Below, piece after piece: positions 7,562-56,900 of a DNA stretch of 64,000 bases. The stretch is from IMG/VR virus record IMGVR_UViG_3300045988_129927; one strand, 5' to 3'. The notes beneath the pieces were generated by a model. It saw only the letters and a list, made by a program, of their open reading frames with translations, was not told the origin of the DNA and did not search any database. The position numbers were made by a program, and so were the translations under genes. How positions within the stretch are numbered: position 1 is the first letter of the stretch; each line of letters opens with the position of its first letter. Source of the stretch: a virus.

Positions 7562-7594
7562 GATTTACCCTAAAAAATAAAAGTTATAGGAAGG

Positions 7595-7622
7595 CTACTA
7601 CCACTAGTAATAGTGGTAGTAG
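7595..7622 (-). terminator. stem-loop terminator
   Basis: ctactaccacta / tagtggtagtag, perfect 12-bp stem with 4-nt loop, downstream of CDS 7636..8268. Confidence 0.6.
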
Positions 7623-7635
7623 TCTGTATCAGATA

Positions 7636-8268
7636 TTAAAGGTATGCACCATGTAAACTAGATGGATCTTCTTCACCCTCTGAAATCATGCCATAGAATC
7701 TATTCCAGTTATTACGCACCATAACTTTCTGATTCATTAAGAGTTCAGGAAGTTCATCTAATGCGTCATTGGAATAAATGACAAATTTCTCATCGTGTTC
7801 TTCACCATCGTAATGCTCATCAGCATACTGAACCATACCATCCACCACTTGTTGATAATATGGATTGTTTTCACCTGTGAGTTTAGGGAATCTGTCTTCT
7901 TCAAATCCCCAACCTTCGATACGTCCACTACTATATTCTTTCTGGAAGTAAGGATTAGAGAGAATGTATCGTTGGTTATTACGAGATGCCACCCTAAAGT
8001 CATCAATGCTAAACATTTGGCGGATACCATCATCGAATACACCACCACTATAACGCATATTGTTTTGAGCAATATTGATAGAACGAATAGCACTGTCGTT
8101 AAATCTTTGCTGTAGTTTATCTTGAAACCACGCCGCCCCTTCACCGTATAGGTTAGTAATGTTATCAATTCTATTTTGAATAAAATTGACTGTATCCATG
8201 TTCATGGTACCGTACATATGTACACGAGCTGTATCTCTACCGCCCAAGTGTAATCTAGCCATACTCAT
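7636..8268 (-). CDS. hypothetical protein (210 aa)
   Basis: ORF 8 nt downstream of the RNAP beta-prime fragment gene. Confidence 0.8.
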   Translation of the reverse strand: MSMARLHLGGRDTARVHMYGTMNMDTVNFIQNRIDNITNLYGEGAAWFQDKLQQRFNDSAIRSINIAQNNMRYSGGVFDDGIRQMFSIDDFRVASRNNQRYILSNPYFQKEYSSGRIEGWGFEEDRFPKLTGENNPYYQQVVDGMVQYADEHYDGEEHDEKFVIYSNDALDELPELLMNQKVMVRNNWNRFYGMISEGEEDPSSLHGAYL

Positions 8269-41196: not shown

Positions 41197-42480
41197 ATGT
41201 CTGAAAGTTTTGGATATAAAGAAATTAAGGGTTTTGAGAACTATTTGATTTACGATGATGGTAGTGTTTTTAATAAGAATACTGAAAAAGAATTAACTGG
41301 TGAGAAGATTGTCTTATATAACAACGGTAAGACTAAATGGTTTACTAAATCTGCTTTAATGAAAGAATACTTTCCTACTGTTGACTTAAAAGGATTTAAA
41401 ACTATCCCTGGTTTCTCTGATTACATGGTAAATAGGGAAGGAGTAGTATATAGTAAAGTATATAGAAAAATACTTAATTTAACTAAAGATTGTAATGGGT
41501 ACCATGTTATTTCAGTTTTTAATGATAACAGGGTTAGAAAGACTAAGAAAGTACATCATTTAGTATTAATGGCTTTTAAACCAGATGATTATAAGTTAAT
41601 CACTACTGATTATAAAAATAACCATAATGCTGATGGTAAGATTTATACTACTAATCACATCGATGGTGTAAAAACAAATAATCGTTTAGATAATTTAGAA
41701 GTCATTGAGCATAAAGATAATGTACAACATGCTATGGATACTGGGTTAGTTTCTACTGTTAAACCGGTTAAGATTAAGTTTCATGATACTGGTGATATAA
41801 AACATTACCCGAGTATGATTGCTGCTTCTAGGGCCTTAGGAATGCAGGAAGACGGTGTGTTACAAAGACTAGAGCATCCTAACTATAAGTGGGTTTTATG
41901 GAGTGATGGTACGCAGATTATTCTTGAGAGTGATGGTGAATTTGAAGATATAAGATACATTCCTCGTGAAGGTGGTGGTATGTATCAAAATATTGTCGCC
42001 ATTGACTATAAGAAGAATGCATTTGAAGAGATTATCTATCCTAGTATTAACGAATATTGTAGGGTTAATGGTATTACTCCTTCTACAGTTAAGAAAGCAT
42101 TTGAACATACTGGTCATCCTATTATGCGGAATTTACATAGGATTAAGAAAATGGATGATCCTAATAACTGGGGCTTGCCTGTTAAGTTAGATCCGATATT
42201 TGAATTGGCTACGAGTAGTTACAATAAAGGAAGAATCTATGTATTCTTGAAAGAAGGAAATGTACCTATTATTAAATTACCTAATGAAGACTTTAAAATA
42301 GAAAGTGATAGTAGGTTCTCTAATACGAATATAAATAAGATTAGAGAAAAGTTAAGATGTAGAGATAGATATAATCTAGATGATGGTTATAGTGTAATGT
42401 ATTATGAAGATTTTATTAAAACTGAGGAATATAGAAAATGGAGAGGATTATTTAATCAATTTGAATATCTAGGTGTATAA
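41197..42480 (+). CDS. free-standing HNH homing endonuclease with NUMOD4-like N-terminal repeats
   Basis: GFENYLIYDDGSVFN and GFSDYMVNREGVVYS (NUMOD4-like); HHLVLMAF...NHIDGVKTNNRLDNLEVIEHKDNVQHA (HNH_3-type H-N-N/H core); C-terminal HTH-like INEYCRVNGITPSTVKKAF. Confidence 0.8.
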   Translation: MSESFGYKEIKGFENYLIYDDGSVFNKNTEKELTGEKIVLYNNGKTKWFTKSALMKEYFPTVDLKGFKTIPGFSDYMVNREGVVYSKVYRKILNLTKDCNGYHVISVFNDNRVRKTKKVHHLVLMAFKPDDYKLITTDYKNNHNADGKIYTTNHIDGVKTNNRLDNLEVIEHKDNVQHAMDTGLVSTVKPVKIKFHDTGDIKHYPSMIAASRALGMQEDGVLQRLEHPNYKWVLWSDGTQIILESDGEFEDIRYIPREGGGMYQNIVAIDYKKNAFEEIIYPSINEYCRVNGITPSTVKKAFEHTGHPIMRNLHRIKKMDDPNNWGLPVKLDPIFELATSSYNKGRIYVFLKEGNVPIIKLPNEDFKIESDSRFSNTNINKIREKLRCRDRYNLDDGYSVMYYEDFIKTEEYRKWRGLFNQFEYLGV

Positions 42481-45152: not shown

Positions 45153-46037
45153 ATGACGTCAGAAATGATTAAAGTCACTAAACGAGACGGACGTCTAGAG
45201 AGTTTAGATATTGAGAAAATTCACCGAGTGGTGACGTGGGCTGCCGAAGGATTGGATGTCTCTCCATCTGAAGTAGAATTAAAAGCCCAAATTCAGTTAT
45301 ACAATGGTATTCGTACTGAAGATATCCACGCTACTTTAATTAAGTCAGCTGCAGACTTAATTAGTTTAGAGAATCCTGATTATCAATACATGGCTGCTCG
45401 ATTGGCTGTATTTAATATTCGTAAAATCGCCTATGGTGAATATACACCTCCTAGACTTTATACACATATTCATTCGATGATTGAAAAAGGCATTTACGAT
45501 AAAGAGATTTTAGAGAAATATACTGAAGAAGAAATCGATTTAATTGAATCTTTTGTAGACCATAATCGCGATATGAATTTTGCTTATGCTGGTATTAAGC
45601 AAATGGAAAGTAAATACTTGGTACAAAACCGAGTAACTAAACGAGTATACGAATCTCCACAAGTTGCTTTTATTCTAATTCCTACTTATTTATTTGCAGA
45701 ATATCCTAAAGAAACTCGTTTAGATTATATTAAGAAATTCTATAATGCATTGTCATTGTTTAAGATTTCATTACCTACCCCTATCATGGCAGGCGTACGT
45801 ACTCCTACCAAGCAATTCTCAAGCTGTACCGTCGTTCCATGTGGTGATAGCTTAGATAGCATTAATGCAGCTAATTCTGCTATTGTTAAATATATCTCTC
45901 AACGAGCAGGTATTGGTATCGAAGGTGGTCGTATTCGTGCATTGGGTAGTGAAATTCGTAAAGGTGAAGCTATCCATACTGGTGTTATTCCATTTTGGAA
46001 GATGTTCCAAGCAGCTGTAAAATCATGTTCTCAGGGT
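45153..46037 (+). CDS. nrdA: ribonucleoside-diphosphate reductase alpha subunit, exon 1 (295 codons)
   Basis: Near-colinear with E. coli NrdA from the ATP-cone (VTKRDGRLESLDIEKIHRV) to ...AVKSCSQG. The last 8 codons of the track ORF (KLFCPAL*) are intron read-through. Confidence 0.9.
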
Positions 46038-46395
46038 AAACTATTCTGCCCAGCTCTGTAGAAATATAGAGTTAAAAACATCACTCTTAATTGCTGGGAA
46101 ATCTATACAAAGTATAGACAATCAGCAGCCAATACCTAATTGTATTTATATACATTTAGGGAAGGTTCAACGACTAGTCGAAAGACGTACCACTCAAGTG
46201 AGGTCTCTGTAACGGAGTTTGGGGAAATAGAGTGACTACCGCAGTGGATTAATGTAATCCTCTATGTGGTTTCCTTATATTAGGAATCTTACCAGGTAAT
46301 GCTGGAGAAGAAGATATAGTCTCAACGTCTATGGTAACATAGAGCTGTCTATAATAGACAGGATACGGATTAACGACCCGTATTGAAGATATTTG
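46038..46395 (+). ncRNA. group I self-splicing intron (358 nt, no ORF) in nrdA
   Basis: Interrupts the conserved KSCSQG|GIRGGAATL. The 5' splice site follows a U. GGGU pairs with GCCC 10 nt into the intron (P1 with a U-G pair). The intron ends in G. It shares long sequence blocks with nrdB intron 1. Confidence 0.8.
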
Positions 46396-47787
46396 GGAAT
46401 TCGTGGTGGAGCTGCTACTTTATCTTATCCTATTTGGCATTTGGAAGTTGAGTCGTTATTAGTATTAAAAAATAACCGTGGTGTAGAAGACAACCGTATT
46501 CGTCAGTTAGACTACAGTGTGCAGATTAATAAACTAATGTATCAGCGTTTGATTGAGGATAAAGACATTACATTACTGTCTCCTCATTCTGTAGAAGGTC
46601 TATACGATGCTTACTTTAACGATCAAGAGCTATTTGAGAAATTGTATTTAGAAGCTGAAAATAATCCTCTGATTCCTAAGAAGACTATTAAAGCTACTGA
46701 ATTGTTTACACTGTTGATGTCAGAACGTGCAAACACTGGTCGTATTTACATCATGAACGTAGACCACTCAAACACACATTCTTCATTCATTGAAAAAGAA
46801 GCTACAGTCTATATTAGCAACTTATGTCAAGAAATTACGCTACCTACTAAACCTTTAAATAATATCCTAGATGAAGAAGGTGAGATTGCTTTATGTACAC
46901 TAGGTGCTTTAAACCTAGGTACTGTAGATAAAGATAAGTTAGAAGATATTGAAGAGTCTATGGACTTAATTGTACGTGCTCTTGATTCTGTATTAGATTA
47001 TCAAAACTATCCTGTTAAAGCAGCTCGTAATTCTGTAGATAAATATCGTCCATTAGGTATTGGTGTAATTAACTATGCTTATTACTTAGCTAAAAATGGT
47101 GCTCGTTATAGTAATGCTAGTGGGCATAAGCTAACTCACGAATTGTTTGAAGCTATTCAGTATTATGCTTTAAAATCATCAGTGCAATTAGCTAAAGAAA
47201 AAGGTAAGTGTGGTGCATTTAAAAACACTAAATACTCTAAAGGTATTTTACCAATCGATACTTATAAAAAGTCTATTGACGAATTTGCTTCATTTGACTA
47301 TAAACTAGATTGGGAAAGCCTTCGTAAAGATATTGTAGAGTATGGTTTACGTAATGCTACACTGACTAGTTTAATGCCATCAGAGAGCAGTAGTCAAGTA
47401 AGTAATGCGACTAATGGTATTGATTTACCTCGTGGTCCTATTACTGTTAAGGCTTCTAAAGACGGTATTTTAAAACAAGTCGTTCCGGAATATGAAAAAT
47501 TAGCTTATGATTACGAATACTTGTGGTACGATAGTAATAATATGGGTATGTTGAAACTTGTAGCCATTATGCAAAAGTTTGTAGACCAATCTATTTCTAC
47601 TAATACTCGTTATAATCCAGCTAATTATCCTAATGGTAAAGTACCCATGAAAGAGATGTTAAAAGAGCTATTGCTTGCGTATAAGTATGGTGTTAAGACT
47701 TTGTACTATCACCACACTAACGATGGTTCTGATGACACTCAGGATAGCTTAGATGACGGTTGTGCAGGTGGTGCTTGTAAAATCTAA
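46396..47787 (+). CDS. nrdA: ribonucleoside-diphosphate reductase alpha subunit, exon 2 (463 codons)
   Basis: GIRGGAATLSYPIWHLEVESLLVLKNNRGVE..., SNLCQEITLPT active-site loop, and C-terminal CAGGACKI redox pair. Confidence 0.9.
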   Translation, partial: GIRGGAATLSYPIWHLEVESLLVLKNNRGVEDNRIRQLDYSVQINKLMYQRLIEDKDITLLSPHSVEGLYDAYFNDQELFEKLYLEAENNPLIPKKTIKATELFTLLMSERANTGRIYIMNVDHSNTHSSFIEKEATVYISNLCQEITLPTKPLNNILDEEGEIALCTLGALNLGTVDKDKLEDIEESMDLIVRALDSVLDYQNYPVKAARNSVDKYRPLGIGVINYAYYLAKNGARYSNASGHKLTHELFEAIQYYALKSSVQLAKEKGKCGAFKNTKYSKGILPIDTYKKSIDEFASFDYKLDWESLRKDIVEYGLRNATLTSLMPSESSSQVSNATNGIDLPRGPITVKASKDGILKQVVPEYEKLAYDYEYLWYDSNNMGMLKLVAIMQKFVDQSISTNTRYNPANYPNGKVPMKEMLKELLLAYKYGVKTLYYHHTNDGSDDTQDSLDDGCAGGACKI

Positions 47788-47895
47788 CTAAAAAAGAATG
47801 GGCTAGGGATAATTCCTTAGTCCTTTCTTTATATGAAAGGAAAAAAGAAGAACTAAGTTTCCTTAATTCTTCTTTATGTTTATTAATGGTGGTTT

Positions 47896-48045
47896 TTAAT
47901 AACCGTGGTGGTGGTTTTCTAACCAAGAATCTAATGTTTGGTTTTCAGCAGTTAACGCTGTTTCTAACCACTCATTTTCTTCTTTAGTTATTGTACCCAT
48001 CATCTTCTTAATTTGAAGAGTTTGGATAAGATAACTTGAATCCAT
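47896..48045 (-). CDS. small protein (49 aa), paralog of 53030..53170
   Basis: MDSSYLIQTLQIKKMMGTITKEENEWLETALTAENQTLDSWLENHHHGY, preceded by GAAAGGAGGTAAAATAATG (strong SD); below the ORF-track cutoff. Confidence 0.55.
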   Translation of the reverse strand: MDSSYLIQTLQIKKMMGTITKEENEWLETALTAENQTLDSWLENHHHGY

Positions 48046-48282
48046 TATTTTACCTCCTTTCTGTTGTAGTTTGTTAAAAGATGGAAGGAAAAGAAAGACA
48101 ATGCTGGTTACATTGCCTTTCTTCGATTTGTGTTAGTAATAATTGCTATTTATCCATGAGTCTAGTGAATGATTTTCTGCACAAATAACCTACTTTCTGT
48201 AACGTGATTTACTCTATACTCCTGCGCTAACAGGAGTATAGAGTAGTCGCTTTTATGTTTTATGCTTTTATATTACTTTATA

Positions 48283-48504
48283 TTACACACGGTGTATATT
48301 TTTAGCCAACTCTTTATTATAGAGTTTACGTGCTCTTCTCTCAAGCTCTGGGAGCATTGCGTCACACAGGTCTTCAACATCTGACCTAGTAATTTTAGGC
48401 TGTGGAGCTTCTTTAAAATTACTTTTAAAGTTGCTCTTTAAACCATTATTTTTAAACCCTACCATAAAGGTTCCTGGCTTTTTACAGGTTTTCTTTCGTT
48501 TCAT
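48283..48504 (-). CDS. hypothetical basic small protein (73 aa)
   Basis: ORF in the same-strand string. Confidence 0.6.
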   Translation of the reverse strand: MKRKKTCKKPGTFMVGFKNNGLKSNFKSNFKEAPQPKITRSDVEDLCDAMLPELERRARKLYNKELAKNIHRV

Positions 48505-48525
48505 TCTACTGTCCTTTCTTTGATT

Positions 48526-48981
48526 TTAATCTACTTTAATAGGTGTAAGATATTTAGGATCTACTTCTGTCCGATATTTAAATACCCTACGGTCATGGTG
48601 TTTATATGCTTCATTAATAAATTCACCATAATTGGTATCATCCAAATTATAAAAGAAACAAAGGAATTTCTTCAATTCTTTTTGTTCTTCTGTAACTGGA
48701 ATATCTACTTCATCTAATACTTCCTTTAAATACGAAAGGGGTTTATTTTCTGTTAAATCACGAAGTATTTTTAAACTAAAGTGTTTATTAGACTTCATGG
48801 TTTTTAACCGAGTTAGCCACTGTTGCGAAATCTTTTCCGTAGAATAATATGGTTTCACCATTTTATCTGGTGAAACATATAATCTACTAAGAGAGCGATC
48901 TCGCATATCCACAATCGTCTCAATCAATGCCATGGCATCGCCTAGAACGTATGCTTTATCCAATAAAATTGTCTTTAACAT
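48526..48981 (-). CDS. hypothetical protein, short member of paralog family A
   Basis: Shares KMVKPYYSTEKISQQWLTRLKTMKSNK and FLCFFYNLDDTNYGEFI with 48996..49916. Confidence 0.75.
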   Translation of the reverse strand: MLKTILLDKAYVLGDAMALIETIVDMRDRSLSRLYVSPDKMVKPYYSTEKISQQWLTRLKTMKSNKHFSLKILRDLTENKPLSYLKEVLDEVDIPVTEEQKELKKFLCFFYNLDDTNYGEFINEAYKHHDRRVFKYRTEVDPKYLTPIKVD

Positions 48982-48995
48982 TATCTTACTCTTTC

Positions 48996-49916
48996 TTAAA
49001 CAATTTTCAGAATAAACACTACTTTAGTCTTAAGGTCTTTAAAGATACTTAAAGATACAAAAGGATGAGACAAAGTATCATCATCAATAAACACTGGATG
49101 AAGTACGTAGTCTTCCTTGTTTGCTCTGTAGATATAACTTTCTAGTTTACCCTTACCATACTCACCAGTTAATTCTATACCACGTGCTTTCAATGTAGGT
49201 TTACCTGCTACGATATCTTCTAAGAAATAATTTACATGACCAATAACCATACTATCAATTTCACTTAATTTGATTTCGTTTCTATCAAATTTATCGAGAT
49301 CAGGTTTAATGATTACAGGTATTTTTGCTTCCTTAGGTTTACGCATATTGCTATCAGCAACATCAGTAATCAATGTATCAGTATCTGAATTAGTAATACA
49401 ATGTTTATAGATATTATCTACAGCTTCTCTATTATATTTATCACTAAACATAATTTCGATAACATCATGCTTACCCTTAGCAGTATCTCTCTGTTCAATT
49501 AAATTTGAAGAGGTATTAGAACGTGCGTAATAACGATAATAATAAGTCATGAACCTATTGAATTTATCTTCTGTATCTAGGTTGTAGATAAACTTAATAA
49601 AGTCAGCAATCATGACAGTATCATCGTGTTCATTAAACATAATGTTCGAAATAGTGGATGCAAGAGAATAAACAGATGTGCCGTAGAAGTATCGTTTCAA
49701 TCTAGATACATCTAATTCTTTAGATTTCTTCATCTCACCTAATCGACTAAGCCATTCTTGAGAAATTCGCTCCAATCTAGTGTATGGTTTAATCATCTTC
49801 TCTACTGGTTTGTAAATTGAAACCATAGTGTCTTTGTAACTATGGTAAGAATTTTTGTTCTTTAATTCGGCCATTGCCAAAGCCAATTTACATGCTCTAT
49901 CTTCAATACGATCCAT
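48996..49916 (-). CDS. hypothetical protein, paralog family A
   Basis: KMIKPYTRLERISQEWLSRLGEMKKSK; FIKFIYNLDTEDKFNRFM; C-terminal ...VLHPVFIDDD...VVFILKIV. Confidence 0.8.
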   Translation of the reverse strand: MDRIEDRACKLALAMAELKNKNSYHSYKDTMVSIYKPVEKMIKPYTRLERISQEWLSRLGEMKKSKELDVSRLKRYFYGTSVYSLASTISNIMFNEHDDTVMIADFIKFIYNLDTEDKFNRFMTYYYRYYARSNTSSNLIEQRDTAKGKHDVIEIMFSDKYNREAVDNIYKHCITNSDTDTLITDVADSNMRKPKEAKIPVIIKPDLDKFDRNEIKLSEIDSMVIGHVNYFLEDIVAGKPTLKARGIELTGEYGKGKLESYIYRANKEDYVLHPVFIDDDTLSHPFVSLSIFKDLKTKVVFILKIV

Positions 49917-49928
49917 TTTTAATTTCCT

Positions 49929-50807
49929 TTATAAAATATCTGATTTTTTAACCATTTTAAAACAAATAATCTTAACCACATCTTCACCTTTAGGGTCTTT
50001 ATCACCTGCTGAGTGAATATAAACTGGAGTTAAAATTACATCATCGAAATTACCGTAATTACGGTGGTTAATAAGAGAGTTAATCACACCACGTTCAATA
50101 TCGTTAAAGAAACCTAGTTGGGTTTGTTCGATAGTAGCACGTAGTTCACCATAATCCATAAAGATGGTTTTAATTTGATAAGCTGTAGACTTAGCGATGT
50201 CTTCTTCTAATTGAGCCAATGGTTGATTAAGGTCTGGATTTACTACTACAGGAATACCATCTAGATTTCTTTTTAACTTCCATGAACTGCTTATCATGGG
50301 GTCGTTAAACAAAAGTGGTTCAACAATGTTAAAACCATCTGCAATTAAGAAATCTTTTCTACGTTTATCGATAATAGCATTATTTAAAGTCTCACGTTTA
50401 AGTGTAGTACTTGTGTAGTTAAATACTACCGCACGTACAAAATCGTCCATTTCATTATCTTCTACACTATATAGAGATTTAATAAGGCGATACATATCGC
50501 ACTTACCAATCAATGAATTGATGATAATGTATGGTAAATCTGTAATCTTATTTGAAAACAGATTTTGTTTATACACTTCGTTTTCTGAATAATGCCACAT
50601 ACAGTGTTCTACCAGTTTCTTACAAAATGGTGCTAGCTCATTATGGTAGATGTCATCTGAACCAAATGAAAGAGAATATACAGTATGTTTAACCAGTGTA
50701 TCTTTACGTAATGTAATGGAACCTAAAAATATACTCAACTCACGAACACTTTCGTTGTGTTTATTATTTAGAGTTACATATGCTGCCAAACTGTTTACTT
50801 TGTTCAT
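49929..50807 (-). CDS. hypothetical protein, paralog family A
   Basis: Start moved to MNKVNS (AAAGGAAATTAAAATG context); the C-terminal VILTPVYIH...VVKIICFKMV matches 53950..54879. Confidence 0.75.
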   Translation of the reverse strand: MNKVNSLAAYVTLNNKHNESVRELSIFLGSITLRKDTLVKHTVYSLSFGSDDIYHNELAPFCKKLVEHCMWHYSENEVYKQNLFSNKITDLPYIIINSLIGKCDMYRLIKSLYSVEDNEMDDFVRAVVFNYTSTTLKRETLNNAIIDKRRKDFLIADGFNIVEPLLFNDPMISSSWKLKRNLDGIPVVVNPDLNQPLAQLEEDIAKSTAYQIKTIFMDYGELRATIEQTQLGFFNDIERGVINSLINHRNYGNFDDVILTPVYIHSAGDKDPKGEDVVKIICFKMVKKSDIL

Positions 50808-50877
50808 TTTAATTTCCTTTATAAAAAATAAGATTACACTACGGTTTCCCATAGTGTAATCCTAGCTATTAAATAAA

Positions 50878-51474
50878 TTATTCTTTACGATACATGCCCA
50901 CGCCTGTGGGTTCACTATTAAAGAATGGTATAATGTTTTCAGTAAGATAACGTAAGTTAATTCCACCTTGATTCTCACCATTTCTAATCCACAATAGATT
51001 CATTGCTTTCATGAAATCTCTATCGTCATCGATGATAAGATATTGTGTCTCACTACCTTCTGGTTGATCCATTAACCATTTCCATACTTCATGACCACGA
51101 CATAGTTTAGGAATTTCTTCCTTATCCACTCCTTCTACAATATCTAAATTATACTGAATATAATCACGATTAACCTTATATCGAGTATCTTCATCAATGT
51201 AGACAGGAGTGCGCCAGCGCTCATGGATAGGTAATTTAAAACCAGAATTCTCAAACACTTTTGATATATCTTCGACTTTATTACAACGTCGCCATGATGA
51301 AGAGATTACAAACTTGATATCTGGGTGTTGTCTGAGTAAGTCTTTAAGAATAATCAGGTTAGATGGGTCTACTTTATCATGAAAATAAGTTCCTAACATA
51401 TTACAAGCACCACGAAATGCTGTATGATTAAGAACACCATCAATATCTAGAAAGATTATTTTTTCTTTAAGCAT
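50878..51474 (-). CDS. HAD-superfamily hydrolase / phosphatase
   Basis: IIFLDIDGVLNH (motif I, DxDG), FVISSSWRR (motif II) and YLIIDDDRDF (motif IV). Confidence 0.7.
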   Translation of the reverse strand: MLKEKIIFLDIDGVLNHTAFRGACNMLGTYFHDKVDPSNLIILKDLLRQHPDIKFVISSSWRRCNKVEDISKVFENSGFKLPIHERWRTPVYIDEDTRYKVNRDYIQYNLDIVEGVDKEEIPKLCRGHEVWKWLMDQPEGSETQYLIIDDDRDFMKAMNLLWIRNGENQGGINLRYLTENIIPFFNSEPTGVGMYRKE

Positions 51475-51863
51475 ATTACATTACCTCGTTTAACTGCGTA
51501 CATAAATTTATTGTTTAAATCACGATTGTAGGTTGAAAAGAAATACACTTTCTTACCGTCTGAATAAATAGTAAAGTATTCAGCTTCTGCAATAATGATG
51601 TCTTTATTTGAGTATTTCTCAGTGAAATCCAAGTCGATGTGGTGTACATCAACATTGGTTTTAATATAGAATGCAAAATCATCAGAATTACCGGCTCGGC
51701 GAACATTAACTTCTTTAATAAAGTCAATCTTAGCTAAATCTCTTTTGAGCTTTTCTATATGCTTACTATACTCACTAGAAGCATAATCGCCTATATCCAA
51801 GTGATTTTTATAATGTACTTCTTTAGGTTTTTTGAATAACAACAAATACGATAAAATACTCAT
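51456..51863 (-). CDS. hypothetical protein (135 aa)
   Basis: ORF overlapping the downstream HAD gene by 19 nt. Confidence 0.75.
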   Translation of the reverse strand: MSILSYLLLFKKPKEVHYKNHLDIGDYASSEYSKHIEKLKRDLAKIDFIKEVNVRRAGNSDDFAFYIKTNVDVHHIDLDFTEKYSNKDIIIAEAEYFTIYSDGKKVYFFSTYNRDLNNKFMYAVKRGNVICLKKK

Positions 51864-51906
51864 TTTTAATTTCCTTTAATAAACATACCCATGATAATAT
51901 TCCTTC

Positions 51907-52938
51907 CTATCGATTAACGATGTACACTGTGCGATCATTGGAGATAATGTGGGTAAATATTGTATTATACTTACCATTCGGCATGTATACTTTACCAATA
52001 TCACTTTCGATCACTTTCCATGCTTTACGGATATTATCCTTAGTGGATTTAGCAGTAACCTCATCCACTATGGTAATGTTACTGAAAAGATAGTCCAGAC
52101 CCATCCTAACCAATACTGTTTTGATGAGTTTCTTGGTGAGTTTCTTATTCAAACCATGTTCTTCGACAAACTTTTCAGTGTGATTTTGCAACTTAGCCCA
52201 CATTTGTAAAGGCAAGGTATACTTGAATTTGTATTTAGCATAACCAAACTTTACAGTAAACCACAAACAAGGTACAGTGTCTTCTTGATAAGGACCGTCA
52301 CCATAACGCCACTTATACGTAATGCCACTGTACTTCCAAGCGACATCATCCAAAGCTTTCATTACCTTCTCACAGTACTTACCGACAGTAGCGTCAGTGA
52401 CTTCTACTTCTTTAGACTTTTCAGGCTCGTCCTCTTTATTCACTTTAGGTGTGTGAATATCTGGGTAAGGATTGCTGAGGCCAGGAATAATATCCATAAA
52501 ACGCTTAGGGTGAGTGATCTCAGTTTCAGTCTCATTCAAGAACTTCTCGCCTTCTTCAATGAGTTCCTCGTCTGAGTACACAGGTATATTACGAGAAGTA
52601 GGATGCTTACGCAGATAATCGACCATCTTCACGTACAGACCAAATCCACGATGTGCCTTATCCTTAACCGCATTAGTAATATCGTCTTTTAGATAGATAA
52701 CAGCGTTCATGGAAGTCATCATCATGGCGATATTTTGGCGATAATACAGGCTATCAGTAGCTGCATCCACCAACTCTTTCGGTGCTGTACTCTTCGTATT
52801 GACTTCTACTACTTTCTCATTACCACGGTTGATAGTGAGTTTGCTGGGCATCAGCATCACTTCGAAACCGGAGTCTTTTAATACAGACACCATATCCTGA
52901 CGGATACTCTCTACTTGTTTCCAAACATAATTACTCAT
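51907..52938 (-). CDS. hypothetical protein (343 aa)
   Basis: ORF with AAAGGAAATCGAAATG start context. Confidence 0.8.
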   Translation of the reverse strand: MSNYVWKQVESIRQDMVSVLKDSGFEVMLMPSKLTINRGNEKVVEVNTKSTAPKELVDAATDSLYYRQNIAMMMTSMNAVIYLKDDITNAVKDKAHRGFGLYVKMVDYLRKHPTSRNIPVYSDEELIEEGEKFLNETETEITHPKRFMDIIPGLSNPYPDIHTPKVNKEDEPEKSKEVEVTDATVGKYCEKVMKALDDVAWKYSGITYKWRYGDGPYQEDTVPCLWFTVKFGYAKYKFKYTLPLQMWAKLQNHTEKFVEEHGLNKKLTKKLIKTVLVRMGLDYLFSNITIVDEVTAKSTKDNIRKAWKVIESDIGKVYMPNGKYNTIFTHIISNDRTVYIVNR

Positions 52939-53029
52939 TTCGATTTCCTTTATATAAAATATTTTCTATCCCTTATATGAAGGGAAAAAGAAAGACAGTG
53001 TTACTAGCATTGTCTTTCTTTTGGTGAGG

Positions 53030-53170
53030 TTAGCGAATAATCGCTAACCAATTATCGAATACGTCGTTTTTCGACTGTTCGAATTTTTTAAGTATAGCTT
53101 TTTCAGTTTCTGAAAGTTCTATACCGCACAGAACTTTGTTCTGTAGAACTTGAATTAAACGCATATCCAT
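53030..53170 (-). CDS. small protein (46 aa), paralog of 47896..48045
   Basis: MDMRLIQVLQNKVLCGIELSETEKAILKKFEQSKNDVFDNWLAIIR, preceded by GAAAGGAGGTGAAAAAATG; below the ORF-track cutoff. Confidence 0.55.
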   Translation of the reverse strand: MDMRLIQVLQNKVLCGIELSETEKAILKKFEQSKNDVFDNWLAIIR

Positions 53171-53376
53171 TTTTTCACCTCCTTTCTGCGACATGACTAA
53201 CCCTCTATTCCTGTTGCTGCAGGAATAGAGGATTGTCGTTTTATGTTAATTAATAAAATCAAATAGAGAAAGAGTTTAACTCTTTCTCTATTATCACTTA
53301 AATAGTATATGTTTAAATTAAACTAAGTAATTTGTTTTATTCATGATGGCTATCGATAGCTTCCTCAATAGCCTTT

Positions 53377-53841
53377 TCAATATTCATATTCACGATGATC
53401 CTCAATAGCTTTTTTAATGTCGTTTCTACTTATCATTGTACCTGTATTAATTTTATCTAATACTTCTCTAAGTGCTGTAACACTTTCCTCAGGAATACCT
53501 TTTACTTCCATGGATAAAGGTTCTGAACTACCTGGTATATTGTCTAAAAAGATATATCTATACTGAGCATCGTTTTTAAACATCTCTAACCACTTATCAA
53601 AACAACTACTAATTCTTGGGTTAGGTTTGAAATAAAGTTCTTCTGGTAATACCGAAATCATTATCTTATCAATATCGATATCGTCTCCAAATAAATATCG
53701 CGTAATAAAACAAGCTTTCCAATAATCAATTAAAAGTTTACCATCTTGTTCTTTCGGGAACTTCTTAACTAGAAATTTACTAATTGGATTTAATACAAAG
53801 ATTTCTTCTCGGGTGGGTTCACATAAAATAGTTTTAAACAT
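53377..53841 (-). CDS. hypothetical protein (154 aa)
   Basis: ORF with an AAAGGAAACC SD. Confidence 0.75.
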   Translation of the reverse strand: MFKTILCEPTREEIFVLNPISKFLVKKFPKEQDGKLLIDYWKACFITRYLFGDDIDIDKIMISVLPEELYFKPNPRISSCFDKWLEMFKNDAQYRYIFLDNIPGSSEPLSMEVKGIPEESVTALREVLDKINTGTMISRNDIKKAIEDHREYEY

Positions 53842-53949
53842 ATGGTTTCCTTTATAAAAAATAATTAATATACCAACGATTTTTTATAGTAGCTCATTAC
53901 CTACTTTAATTAGGATAGGGAAAATATCCCTATCCTAATATATCGTATA

Positions 53950-54879
53950 CTATACTACCAATTTAAACACCAACATTTTCAAAACCTTTTTACCTTCTTT
54001 AGTTTCAAAAATTGGAGTGAGTACCACAACACTGTCTTTATGTGTAAATGTTGTAGTATTCTTTCTAGAGTACATTTTAACCTTACCAAGCTTTTCAAGT
54101 TCATTGTAATGATTCTTGAAAATCAGATATGCTAAACTCTCAGTGTCTGGTTTAAATTTAGCACCTATATACACATCATCCCGAACCACAGTCATTGAAA
54201 CAAAACCTTTAGATACCCCGATCTTATGTTTACTTAACTCTTCTTCATGTAAGTGAGTAAATGTATCAACATCACCTAAATGTTCCATATAGTAATATAC
54301 AGGTACTTTTTTATTTAGTGTATCTACATCTTCATTATAGAAGAAATGGTTAAAACCATCTACATCTTCAACTGGGATATTTTCAAGATGTTGTCTATCA
54401 ATAATACCTTTAGTAGAGTGAAGTGACTTCATTGTGTAGTTATAGGTTTCTCTGAAAACATTGTTTAAGAATACAATGAATTCCTCTTCTGTTTCAATTT
54501 CGTAAAAACTACGTAAGAAATCCTTAAGAGCAACTACGTCATCGTAATATTGAGGGTGGATTTTACTTGGATTCTGAATATACCAGAAGAATAAAGGGAT
54601 ATATGTAATACTCTGCTTTTTAAAAAGTGTACCTACATTTTTTACCCAATCCTTATTTTCTGTTTCTTTTACTTGCTCTAAGTAATTAATCCAATCTATC
54701 GTTAGTTTAGTAAGGGTACTTAATAACGGTACGCCATTAATACCTTTCACAAGATTTGGTAATTCATCTTTATGGATGTAATTATCATATAGCGTTGATG
54801 CTATAGCTTTTCTTCTTGTGATTTCTGATAATACAATAGCGACACGTTTATATCCTAACTCTTTAGTAGTTTTAGCCAT
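53950..54879 (-). CDS. hypothetical protein, paralog family A
   Basis: DFLRSFYEIETEEEFIVFLNN and C-terminal VVLTPIFETKEGKKVLKMLVFKLVV match the 48996 and 49929 products. Confidence 0.8.
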   Translation of the reverse strand: MAKTTKELGYKRVAIVLSEITRRKAIASTLYDNYIHKDELPNLVKGINGVPLLSTLTKLTIDWINYLEQVKETENKDWVKNVGTLFKKQSITYIPLFFWYIQNPSKIHPQYYDDVVALKDFLRSFYEIETEEEFIVFLNNVFRETYNYTMKSLHSTKGIIDRQHLENIPVEDVDGFNHFFYNEDVDTLNKKVPVYYYMEHLGDVDTFTHLHEEELSKHKIGVSKGFVSMTVVRDDVYIGAKFKPDTESLAYLIFKNHYNELEKLGKVKMYSRKNTTTFTHKDSVVVLTPIFETKEGKKVLKMLVFKLVV

Positions 54880-55015
54880 TTTAATTTCCTTTTCGGTTAA
54901 ATATAAAATAAGAAGTTTATTTAAAGTAGCCTTCTTTCACTACTTCATTTAAATAATATATGTTTAATAAAAATTAAGATAGAGGTAATTATCCCTCTAT
55001 CTTAATTACCTTACA

Positions 55016-55435
55016 TTAAAGTTCCATATCTAAATCACCATCTTGGATTTGAGTGTCCACTTGGCTTACAAGATAGGAAGAGATTTCCACTTCTTGTGGT
55101 GCTACTTGAACATTGTCTGAAGTCAACCAGGCATTAATCCAAGGAATAGGATTACTTTTCACTTCTGGGAAGAGTGGCTCTAATCCTATTGCTTTCATGC
55201 GGTGATTGGTAATATACTCAACATATTGACAAAGAATAGCTTCATTCAAGCCAATCATGCTACCATCTTTAAATAGATACTTAGCCCAATCTTTTTCTTG
55301 TTGAGCTGCTTCTTTAAAGATGTTAATACATTCTTCTCTGGTTTCTTCAGCGATTTCTTTCCACTCTTTGCCTTCAGCACCAGATGCCAACGTATTGATG
55401 ATATGTTGAGTAGTAGTTAGGTGAAGTGCTTCATC
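55016..55435 (-). CDS. nrdB: ribonucleoside-diphosphate reductase beta subunit, exon 3
   Basis: The frame is open upstream of the track start: [25 protein letters not shown]...[31 protein letters not shown]..., colinear with E. coli NrdB from the second ExxH iron-ligand motif to the C-terminus. Confidence 0.9.
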
Positions 55436-55748
55436 CGAAGCTGTCCACTACGGTCGTTAATCGTAGCCGGTGTGCTCAAGACACCCGCCCAATATCACTA
55501 TTGGGGTCAGACTATATCACGATCTATTATTAAAATAGACCCTCTGCGTTTGGCGGACTAAACGATTGTCCACTACTCTACTTTCTCTAATAAATAATTA
55601 GGATTTCGATAGTCGTTAGAGTTTGTCAGTTTAAATAGCATAATTTAAACGTCTTTACTACGGGATTGTCTATAATAAATATAATAGAGTTTCCCCGTTT
55701 AGCAGAGTTATTCGACTACCATCACTGATAGAAGCCGCAATGAAGTTT
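55436..55748 (-). ncRNA. group I self-splicing intron 2 of nrdB (313 nt, no ORF)
   Basis: Starts AAAC after exon ...CCGU. CCGU pairs with GCGG 10 nt downstream (P1). Ends ...TTAACGACCGTAGTGGACAGCTTCG. Shares the GGGGAAA...TAGACAATC and AACGACTATCGAAA blocks with the other two introns. Confidence 0.75.
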
Positions 55749-55816
55749 ACGGGAAATTAATTTAATGATTTTAGCATTACCTTCCATGAGTTTACGTTCG
55801 GCAAAACTAAAGCTAC
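55749..55816 (-). CDS. nrdB: ribonucleoside-diphosphate reductase beta subunit, 68-nt micro-exon 2
   Basis: With the final T of exon 1 it encodes [23 protein letters not shown], exactly the 23 residues (E. coli [23 protein letters not shown]) missing from the two track ORFs. Exon lengths 691+68+420 = 1179 nt stay in frame. Confidence 0.85.
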
Positions 55817-56209
55817 CGTTACATTTAATATGGGTCGTTAGGCCATACAATACCTACTTTGAGATATTCCCTATCTTTCAATAGGATACTAGACTATATC
55901 ACCATCTCCGACATTACTCGGTAAGACTCCCTACTAATTAGTAAGAAGGATACATAGAGGTTTTTCAACCACTGTATCTGCTCTCTATTTGGAACTCACT
56001 TGAGTCCTACGTCTTTCGACTAGTCGTTGAAGTTTCTACTTTTATTATACAAAAGTAGCTTACCTGCTGATTACCCAATCTTATTTATTTTCAAACATTC
56101 ACGCCTGTCGTCACCGACTACGTTGTAGTTAAATAAGCTCTAAGGGATTCCCAGCAATTAAGAGAGTTTTTTATCTTATTATTTCTAATAAGTTGCGCAT
56201 AAATTGTTT
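55817..56209 (-). ncRNA. group I self-splicing intron 1 of nrdB (393 nt, no ORF)
   Basis: Starts AAAC after exon ...UGCGU. UGCGU pairs with GCGCA 11 nt downstream (P1). Ends ...CTAACGACCCATATTAAATGTAACG. Blocks CTCTTAATTGCTGGGAA, TTCAACGACTAGTCGAAAGACGTA, ACTCAAGTGAG and TAACGACCC are shared with the nrdA intron. Confidence 0.8.
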
Positions 56210-56900
56210 ACGCAAAAGATACATAGAAACGAATGGCTTCAAGTACATTCACCACAAACATACAAAGATAAATCTTCTTCATCAGTTCACGTTTGCTAAT
56301 TTCAATACGATGGTAAGATTCCATCAGACCATCTTTTGATTGTTTCTTAATTTCAAAAACACCTTCTCCTAGAAGATTATAATATTGAGAATATTCAATC
56401 AAATCATCGTAGTATTGAGAAATTGCACTTGCGCGTTTCTTAATTTCTTCGTTTACTACAATACTATCAAACTCTTCACTAGGGTCAATCAATACATTAC
56501 GCATGATGTACGTATAAGAGTAAGAATGGATGCCTTCGAAGGCGGTCCAGAATATCGTCCAGTGTTCTAATTCAGGGATAGAAATCAAGGGAAGGAATGC
56601 AATGGATGGACTTCTTCCCTGAATTGCATCCAAAAGTGACTGATAATCCAGATTACGCAAGAAAATATGCTTCTCATGCTCTGGTAAACCTTCAAAATCG
56701 ATACGGTCTTTGGACAAATCTATTTCTTCAGGGCGCCAGAAGAACGACTTTTGCTTTTCTGTTAAATCATTGTATACCTGATACTTAGCTTTATCGTATC
56801 GTTGTAAGTTAATAGATTGACCTAAGAACATTGCTTCTTTAGTAGCATCATTAGGTGTTTGATTAAATACTGAAAATCGTTGTTTTATTTGTTCACTCAT
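56210..56900 (-). CDS. nrdB: ribonucleoside-diphosphate reductase beta subunit, exon 1
   Basis: [14 protein letters not shown]...[11 protein letters not shown]...[10 protein letters not shown]. The TAA that ends the track ORF is the last exon T plus the first two intron nucleotides. Confidence 0.9.

Follow-up and report, generated by a model that had tools for sequence, protein, structure and literature searches.

Introduction

Among the genes that selfish introns and inteins classically invade are those of ribonucleotide reductase (RNR). In phage T4, three homologous introns were reportedly described by Shub et al. in 1988, and the orf142 and nrdE introns of phage Twort are said to have been reported by Landthaler and Shub in 1999 and by Landthaler et al. 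in 2002. Introns have also been found in the nrdE and nrdF genes of SPbeta and of Bacillus, including the Bacillus cereus group (PMC2248736), and it was established experimentally that the defunct intron of T4 nrdB homes in trans (Wilson & Edgell 2009, PMC2790892). In the nucleus-forming jumbo phages, PhiPA3 carries a group I intron with an HNH gene at the catalytic codons of gp210, a virion RNA polymerase gene (Birkholz et al. 2024, PMC11620839), and an intron endonuclease of this phage group was shown to act in the competition between co-infecting phages (PMC11620839). In this work we analysed the RNR locus (positions 45153-56900) of a stretch of 64,000 nucleotides from the IMG/VR virus record IMGVR_UViG_3300045988_129927, hereafter called the window, in which the genes nrdA and nrdB are interrupted by three group I introns. 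The explanation that we favour, and that we consider probable, is that these are three independent, site-specific introns that lack an open reading frame (ORF), each homing at its own site with the nuclease provided by endonuclease-bearing versions present in the population, and that the move between nrdA and nrdB of the lineage shared by two of them was an ancient ectopic event.

This locus resembles the multi-intron genes of T4, Twort and SPbeta/Bacillus in that several small group I introns, some of them ORF-less, occupy conserved RNR codons, in that related introns are present at different sites of one genome, and in the patchy occupancy of the sites among relatives. It differs from them in the host, a nucleus-forming jumbo phage of the phiKZ-like type whose nrdA and nrdB genes are of class Ia, and in that one of its intron lineages is defined by an expansion of the P8 region. 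Placement of the window in an uncultured phage of this kind is suggested by PHROG and Pfam matches to the nuclear shell protein, to phiKZ gp28/gp29 and to a divergent family-B polymerase; the best matches in cultured phages are 65% identical for NrdA and 31% for the tail sheath.

Structure and insertion sites of the three introns

A covariance search with the Rfam model RF00028 detected three group I introns, and no more, in the whole 64 kb of the window; they are located within 45153-56900 and have scores of 84.4 bits for the nrdA intron, 69.6 bits for nrdB intron 1 and 54.2 bits for nrdB intron 2 (the gathering score is 50); in the three cases model positions 1-253 of 253 were matched, i.e., the full P1-P9 core. 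The boundaries were set by the reading frames across the junctions and by the spliced translation. On the plus strand, nrdA exon 1 (45153..46037, codons 1-295, ending in ...KSCSQG) is followed by an intron of 358 nt at the site that we call A295 (46038..46395), and by exon 2 (46396..47787, codons 296-758, starting with GIRGGAATL). The nrdB gene lies on the minus strand, where exon 1 (56210..56900, codons 1-230 and the first nucleotide of codon 231) is separated by intron 1 (site B230, 55817..56209, 393 nt) from an exon 2 of only 68 nt (55749..55816), which is followed by intron 2 (site B253, 55436..55748, 313 nt) and by exon 3 (55016..55435), which starts with DEALH and carries the iron ligands E238 and H241 in the numbering of E. 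coli. The spliced products, NrdA of 758 and NrdB of 392 residues, are uninterrupted and align end to end with R1 and R2 from E. coli.

The three introns start with AAAC, a feature that had been noticed in the first-pass annotation and that was confirmed at the exact boundaries; likewise, all of them are preceded by an exon U and end in G. The 5' exons end in GGGT (nrdA), GCGT (nrdB intron 1) and CCGT (nrdB intron 2), and the guide sequences GCCC, GCGCAA and GCGG, respectively, were found 10-12 nt into each intron, with a G of the guide available in every case for a U·G pair with the exon U. When predicted pairs were inspected for compensatory changes, as had been proposed, double changes were detected in 14 of 90 pairs for the nrdA-site introns and in 6 of 85 for the nrdB site-253 introns, with few broken pairs, as well as in 12 of the 23 pairs of a P8 domain (described below) that covary across site lineages; these counts are informative for local helices only, given that RNAalifold cannot model the P3/P7 pseudoknot. 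Judging from the Rfam scores, the splice-site features and the compensatory changes, all three are genuine group I introns. Their longest stop-free stretches comprise 57, 37 and 41 codons, no endonuclease ORF was found inside any of them, and a tblastn search detected no remnant in them of the intron endonucleases present in relatives (E>3), which sustains the previous statement that the three RNR introns are devoid of a homing endonuclease.

Regarding the position of the introns in the proteins, the numbering of the window NrdA is that of E. coli R1. The nrdA intron splits G295|G296, shortly after C292 of the sequence KSCSQGG; since the active-site cysteines of class Ia RNR are C225, C439 and C462, C292 is not a catalytic cysteine. 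Intron 1 of nrdB is located in the codon equivalent to that of E. coli C214, ten residues past the iron ligand E204, and intron 2 splits R236|D237 (E. coli numbering), one residue ahead of the iron ligands E238/H241. The idea that each intron adjoins catalytic residues is therefore correct for nrdB intron 2 and loosely so for intron 1, but it does not hold for nrdA as it was worded, i.e., with C292 as the catalytic residue.

Two probable intron lineages at three sites

Pairwise affine-gap alignment of the nrdA intron with nrdB intron 1 revealed 79% identity over 312 aligned columns (z=24 against shuffled sequences). Alignments of this type were used in place of a MAFFT alignment of the three introns, which was dropped because an insertion of ~55 nt in the P5 loop of nrdB intron 1 caused the 5' part of this intron to be misplaced. 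Eight near-identical blocks had been proposed to be common to these two introns; seven of them are exact, and the remaining one, TCTTACC.GTAATG, requires a spacer of 2 nt and not of 1 nt. The strongest of the common blocks is the 24-mer TTCAACGACTAGTCGAAAGACGTA (46166..46189, plus strand, in the nrdA intron), which includes the 5' strand of P7 and a small hairpin. Exact copies of this 24-mer were detected in over 120 contigs of IMG/VR, within introns that interrupt many different genes (tape-measure-like, tail-fibre, structural, topoisomerase and others), and therefore it marks a widespread subfamily of phage introns. When only the core was considered (260 columns, 110 introns of the subfamily), the Jukes-Cantor (JC) distance from the nrdA intron to nrdB intron 1 was 0.48, and to the introns of unrelated genes it was 0.39-0.42. 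An early reading of a neighbour-joining (NJ) tree of these core columns, according to which the two introns are at least as distant from each other as from introns of unrelated genes, was revised, given that it ignored the periphery, where a shared domain is located.

This domain lies in the segment between TTCAACGACTAGTCGAAAGACGTA and GATATAGTCT, which measures 107-123 nt in the nrdA-site and nrdB site-230 introns versus a median of 47 nt in 101 other introns of the subfamily. In the window the segment has 123 nt in the nrdA intron (46190..46312, plus strand) and 107 nt in nrdB intron 1 (55901..56007, minus strand). The extra sequence folds as three hairpins between P3' and P7', forming an expanded P8 domain that is homologous in both introns, with 76 of 95 aligned positions identical. 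Some blocks are nearly exclusive to this domain: CCTCTATGT was found in only one of 105 external introns of the subfamily, and TCTTACC..GTAATG in none of the 105. The longer hairpin pattern TCTTACC..GTAATG..GGAG was considered as a lone marker of the lineage and rejected, since it is also present in ~20 otherwise dissimilar introns. The nrdA intron and nrdB intron 1 both have the P8 domain, which ~100 other members of the subfamily lack, and therefore they are likely of common descent and would constitute one expanded-P8 lineage that goes beyond the generic core. The first-pass annotation had itself raised the alternative that the common blocks could be merely the generic group I core of unrelated introns; the absence of this domain elsewhere speaks against it for this pair.

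The case of nrdB intron 2 is different. Its blocks AACGGGGAA, TAGACAATCC, CTAACGACTATC, GATATAGTCT and TAACGACC, which had been quoted as a diverged version of those of the other two introns, are present verbatim in the td intron from T4. For a comparison with the T4 introns their ORFs were removed, since global alignments with the ORF-containing sequences gave uninformative scores; under these conditions nrdB intron 2 reached z=11.4 with the td core, versus 6.4 with the nrdA intron and 4.3 with nrdB intron 1. In the pairwise alignments of the window introns, the values were 7.5 with the nrdA intron and 3.7 with nrdB intron 1. Being closer to td than to either of the other two, nrdB intron 2 is, on these similarities, a separate T4-td-like lineage unrelated to them, where td-like refers to sequence similarity to the td core and not to a formal subgroup assigned by the P7.1/P7.2 and P9 architecture. 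Thus, of the single lineage that was thought to occupy three sites, what stands is the relationship between the nrdA intron and nrdB intron 1, through their P8 domain. In spite of its similarity to the T4 td intron (group IA2, I-TevI), nrdB intron 2 is located in another gene and site (nrdB R236|D237), is ORF-less, and has been found only in this jumbo-phage clade, given that its motif was detected in only 14 contigs, all from the clade of the window.

The expanded-P8 type of intron was also observed in a third group of jumbo phages (contigs L259, at ~7567-7959 on the plus strand, L260, L261 and L266), in the gene for a beta-type subunit of RNA polymerase (phrog_2986). In the L259 group the intron is located directly after …AAMSGLGAD and ahead of …HDGD, apparently a catalytic-aspartate site equivalent in kind to that of the PhiPA3 gp210 intron; in L260 there is a further insertion of ~1.15 kb upstream of this intron. 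PhiPA3 and the phages considered here belong to the same chimallin-encoding group, and the intron of L259, L260, L261 and L266 likewise stands beside …GAD/DGD of an RNA polymerase subunit. The window introns differ from that of gp210 in that they are endonuclease-less and are located in RNR genes.

Occupancy of the sites in related phages and age of the lineages

Relatives of the window phage were located among the IMG/VR contigs by exact-word patterns. This search yielded ~25 related contigs of 150-260 kb, in which mapping of the exons revealed all the possible states of occupancy. The nrdB gene is intron-less in L122, L123 and L132; it has only the site-253 intron in L126, L127, L129-L131, L134, L135, L138, L145 and L147, only the site-230 intron in L136, and both introns in L124, L125, L128, L137 and L141, as in the window. 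Site 295 of nrdA is empty in L122, L123, L126 and L138, and L122 has both genes fully intron-less. A survey of intron-plus and intron-less alleles had been suggested together with the initial claims; its outcome is that every combination of empty and occupied sites exists.

Orthologues of each intron were found at the same site in many of these phages. Those of site A295 are 93-97% identical in L114, L025, L062, L076 and L124, and 84-86% in a second subclade; those of site B230 are 94-96% identical in L124, L125, L128, L137 and L095, and those of site B253 are 91.5-97.4% identical to the intron of the window in 13 listed relatives. In any pair of genomes, introns of one site are 80-98% identical to each other, and those of different sites 65-73%. 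Accordingly, the clades formed by site have bootstrap values of 99-100%, versus 0-1% for a sister relationship of the nrdA intron to nrdB intron 1, and the distance between the latter two is JC ~0.5 whichever genomes are compared. At site 230 at least three types of ribozyme were found, i.e., that of the window, a second expanded-P8 type (L136 and L141) and an unrelated type that corresponds to T4 nrdB. Moreover, a distant clade of 276-kb phages (L031 and L038) already has introns at all three sites. Since the introns cluster by site and not by genome, site 230 holds several ribozyme types, and the distant clade has the three sites occupied, the split between the nrdA-site and nrdB site-230 lineages appears to be old, predating these phages, and there is no sign of a duplication in this genome. 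A full-length NJ tree with outgroups did not establish the order of the site lineages, because the distances are saturated; in it, the nrdA-site clade joined the site-230 type of L136/L141 with a bootstrap of only 63-75%.

A separate observation concerns L145 and L147, whose NrdA is 93-96% identical to that of the window. Their nrdB gene is a mosaic with respect to 55016..56900 of the window: exon 1 is ~72% identical in nucleotides, the site-253 intron 96-97%, and the last 126 nt of the gene ~90%, with the boundaries of exchange near the intron sites.

Endonuclease-bearing versions of the introns

Versions of the introns that carry an endonuclease gene were found for two of the three sites, nrdA 295 and nrdB 230. 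The nrdA-site intron of L135 has 1117 nt and contains an ORF for a 241-aa protein with NUMOD4 and HNH_3 domains. The nrdB site-230 intron of L141 (L141:10671-11941, plus strand) has 1271 nt and contains an HNH ORF of 287 aa, which is 45% identical to I-TevIII from T4, itself a remnant (E 5e-19); the site-230 intron of L136 (L136:10671-11041, plus strand) belongs to the same second expanded-P8 type. Both ORFs are located in the P6 region, where the window introns keep only a short hairpin. In another contig, L003, the 3' boundary of an intron with an inserted ORF was not found by regular expression. The mobility of introns lacking an endonuclease had been presented as a puzzle; endonuclease-containing homologues at the same sites in relatives, which the first-pass annotation had listed among the findings contrary to its proposal, are present in L135 for nrdA and in L141 for nrdB 230, and with them the puzzle fades.

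One of the closest known counterparts of nrdB intron 1 is the T4 nrdB intron, which encodes I-TevIII. Both interrupt the gene at the identical nucleotide, …TATGTATCTTTTGCGT|AAA…, with a near-identical 5' exon sequence; L141 carries an I-TevIII-like HNH gene at this site, and in both systems an intron without a working endonuclease persists in nrdB. Nevertheless, the ribozymes are different, since nrdB intron 1 belongs to the expanded-P8 lineage of the 24-mer subfamily and its core gives z=3.8 with that of T4 nrdB, with values of 3.6-4.0 for the L136/L141 type, whereas the T4 td and T4 nrdB introns give 11.5 with each other; taken together, the core comparisons with the T4 nrdB ribozyme lie at z=1-4. 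An enzyme of the I-TevIII type is thus found at the same site in two unrelated ribozymes, and therefore endonuclease and ribozyme appear to be independently associated, which fits the models that propose such an independent association. A further difference is that the T4 intron is mobilised by MobE (PMC2790892), and a MobE-like gene was not found between nrdA and nrdB of the window.

Mobility of the introns

A comparison of introns and exons suggests that the introns have moved between phages. In the more distant relatives, exons 1 and 3 of nrdB are 71-85% identical to those of the window, versus 91.5-97.4% for the site-253 intron across all relatives that carry it; in the second subclade, the nrdA-site introns are 84-86% identical versus 71-74% for the nrdA exons, and third codon positions in distant relatives are ~50-60% identical. 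In the 68-nt exon 2 of nrdB, the identity of third positions is 65-96% in genomes with the site-253 intron versus 48-61% in those lacking introns. As judged from these identities, conservation is much higher in the introns than in the exons around them, which implies recent horizontal homing and speaks against an inheritance that is only vertical. In the T-even phages, a matching pattern was reportedly described as "recent transfer of old introns".

According to the explanation favoured here, each intron would self-splice from the mRNA and restore the RNR reading frame, as the intact cores, the splice sites with their U·G pair and terminal G, and the covariation suggest. At the DNA level, homing or gene conversion at the cognate site would maintain each intron and spread it among relatives that infect the same cell. 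The break or nick would be made by endonucleases of ORF-bearing intron versions, supplied in trans, i.e., a NUMOD4/HNH_3 enzyme for the nrdA site and an I-TevIII-like HNH enzyme for nrdB 230, and the ORF-less copies would still be copied passively once an intron-less allele is cut. The copies in the window would represent the ORF-less stage of the usual cycle of gain and loss of homing endonucleases, with the ORF presumably lost in this lineage. As for the transfer of the expanded-P8 lineage from one RNR gene to the other, it would be an ancient ectopic event and not a duplication in this genome, and it could have occurred by reverse splicing or equally by ectopic cutting by an endonuclease.

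Several observations weigh against this explanation. The monophyly of the expanded-P8 lineage has a bootstrap value of only 39% and the distances between site lineages are saturated, so that common descent rests on the shared domain. In none of the 14 contigs with nrdB intron 2 was an ORF-bearing version of it found. The co-conversion signal in exon 2 is weak, as it comes from 23 third-codon positions per genome, and the high conservation of the introns could partly reflect purifying selection and not recent transfer.

Alternative explanations

A different origin of the second site of the expanded-P8 lineage would be an RNA route, from nrdA 295 to nrdB 230 or in the opposite direction, in which the intron reverse-spliced into a transcript that was then reverse-transcribed and recombined into the genome, with endonucleases acquired later. 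In agreement with this, the exon tetramers that pair in P1 are one base apart (GGGU versus GCGU) and have matching guides (GCCC versus GCGC); different endonuclease families are found in the same ribozyme lineage at different sites, as would be expected if the nucleases came later, and the same type of ribozyme is also present in the RNA polymerase gene of the third phage group. However, the same pattern can be explained by ectopic cutting by an endonuclease of relaxed specificity or by illegitimate recombination, no reverse transcriptase is evident in the window, and mobility by reverse splicing has no direct evidence in any system (PMC3984707). For these reasons we consider the RNA route unlikely.

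It could also be proposed that the introns are immobile fossils that are inherited vertically, kept invariant by selection on the ribozyme, and different among relatives only through precise loss. The catalytic cores are indeed highly constrained, the window introns lack an endonuclease, and nrdB intron 2 has never been seen with an ORF. Nevertheless, the site-253 intron is 92-97% identical including its loops, in genomes where nearby synonymous sites approach saturation (~50-60%) and the host gene is ~72% identical, and it shows few compensatory changes (the 6 of 85 pairs mentioned above). In addition, each of the three sites is occupied or empty independently of the others when relatives are compared, and the identity of the exons rises beside the site-253 intron only in the genomes that carry it. 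Strict vertical descent is, in consequence, quite improbable.

A third possibility is that the introns home in trans, or collaboratively, with an HNH protein encoded in the window that would cut the intron-less nrdA and nrdB alleles of competitors. The gene in question (41197..42480, plus strand) encodes a protein of 427 aa with weak Pfam matches to NUMOD4 and HNH_3. It is the sole recognisable nuclease of this kind in the window, as had been stated previously; no other homing-endonuclease family was found with Pfam and PHROGs among the 51 window ORFs of at least 90 aa. There are precedents for such a mechanism in the action of T4 MobE on the defunct nrdB intron (PMC2790892) and in the collaborative homing of ORF-less introns (PMC3984707), with which the window has in common the presence of ORF-less introns and a separate HNH protein in one genome. 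The protein also shares the NUMOD4+HNH_3 architecture with the intron endonuclease of L135, to which it is 28% identical over 116 residues. However, it has no similarity to T4 MobE, and its gene adjoins neither of the RNR genes, since ~2.7 kb and three ORFs separate it from the start of nrdA, and 13 kb from nrdB.

The distribution of this gene is also difficult to reconcile with a role in homing. Using the tail-tube gene as an anchor, a homologue was found to occupy this position, following the genes for the tail sheath and the tail tube, in almost every relative, also where introns are missing; its product is 78-85% identical in close relatives and 30-41% in distant ones, where the sheath is ~52% identical, so that the gene evolves fast. 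Therefore, it looks vertically inherited and not sporadic, and the earlier description of a free-standing endonuclease gene should be replaced by that of a syntenic resident. Homologues are found alongside intron-less nrdA and nrdB genes (L239 with L122, and L241 with L123), and close homologues (80-83%) alongside an empty nrdB site 230 (L145 and L147); the presence of the gene does not follow the intron content. Unlike the known case of collaborative homing, the gene is then neither adjacent nor sporadic and coexists with empty sites. Being syntenic and present in intron-less relatives too, it is a poor candidate for the driver; it is probably outside the intron system, and the protein may be a domesticated or long-resident nuclease. 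The empty sites differ from the window junctions at 5-10 of the central 24 nt, which limits the use of co-occurrence to evaluate the specificity of the HNH protein and therefore leaves some room for an activity against foreign alleles. Altogether, it is very unlikely that this protein drives the homing of the introns.

Finally, the recent spread of one intron within this genome into three sites of nrdA and nrdB, which was the original proposal, draws on the long exact blocks and the rare peripheral domain common to the nrdA intron and nrdB intron 1, and on the AAAC start and the same P1 layout of all three introns, but it is hardly tenable in view of the orthologues that, for each intron, occupy the corresponding site in many diverged phages, the grouping by site (99-100%) instead of by genome (0-1%) with a nrdA-to-nrdB distance no smaller here than between any genomes, the closeness of nrdB intron 2 to T4 td, and the introns already present at the three sites in the distant clade (L038).

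Significance of the locus

Part of what is described here was already known, i.e., the presence in phage RNR genes of related, partly ORF-less group I introns with a patchy distribution (PMC2248736, PMC3984707), and that of intron endonucleases in nucleus-forming jumbo phages (PMC11620839). What is new is the class Ia RNR locus of an uncultured phiKZ-like lineage with these introns, a defined expanded-P8 lineage at nrdA 295, nrdB 230 and an RNA polymerase gene, and an I-TevIII-type enzyme in a ribozyme that is not that of T4. The locus extends to the uncultured phiKZ-like nucleus-forming jumbo phages the picture of RNR genes as hosts of selfish elements. Across the relatives, the two RNR genes hold up to five of them (inteins at C225 and C439, and introns at nrdA 295, nrdB 230 and nrdB 253), in every combination, and provide a natural series of stages in the homing-intron life cycle, from the empty site to the endonuclease-bearing intron and the ORF-less intron. 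Current concepts are left unchanged, since this is a good example of a known mobile-intron system and not of a new principle. Because an intron endonuclease of this phage group acts in the competition between co-infecting phages (PMC11620839), the polymorphic introns could mark boundaries of genetic exchange.

A more daring reading, which we regard as doubtful, is that the expanded-P8 lineage, specific to the nucleus-forming jumbo phages, continues to jump between codons for catalytic regions of essential genes (nrdA 295, nrdB 230 and the RNA polymerase subunit) although it has no endonuclease of its own, and that nrdB intron 2 also continues to pass horizontally from one diverged phage to another, driven by a nuclease acting in trans or by cuts at the neighbouring site 68 nt away. 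If this were true, the introns would not be decaying relics, but would take an active part in the exchange or competition between jumbo phages that infect the same cell.

Inteins and neighbouring genes

Other insertions were observed in the RNR genes of the relatives. Those of nrdA at residues 225 and 439 were considered as possible introns, but they are in-frame inteins (with the junctions C|FPAD…VHN|C and NL|CVSGD…, respectively). The C225 inteins of L123, L127 and L141 have 1260 nt; those at C439 are found in L127, L129-L132, L134, L136-L138 and L141, and the ones that were measured have 708 or 984 nt. NrdA from the window has an intein at neither position, and L141 accumulates five selfish elements across its two RNR genes. 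Similarly, the insertion in nrdA of the Pseudoalteromonas phage PH357 proved to be an in-frame intein and not a site-295 intron. In nrdB, L133 has an insertion of 969 nt near residue 90 (L133:9031-10001), a site that is vacant in the other genomes examined.

Some other genes of the window deserve mention. Outside its 40-58 kb region, three PHROG families of the terminase large subunit each match a separate ORF (2.5e-53, 7.3e-36 and 6e-07), which suggests a split or interrupted gene, and another ORF matches HTH_Tnp_1, a transposase helix-turn-helix domain (8e-06). Between nrdA and nrdB, on the minus strand, there are ORFs of 151, 306, 307 and 309 aa (48526..50852 and 53950..54879) with no Pfam match; by eye their C-termini look similar, and they may be paralogous. 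Also between the RNR genes, 50878..51474 (minus strand) encodes a protein of 198 aa with the HAD domain of the 'Swiss Army Knife' RNA repair proteins (PF18143, 1.7e-17).

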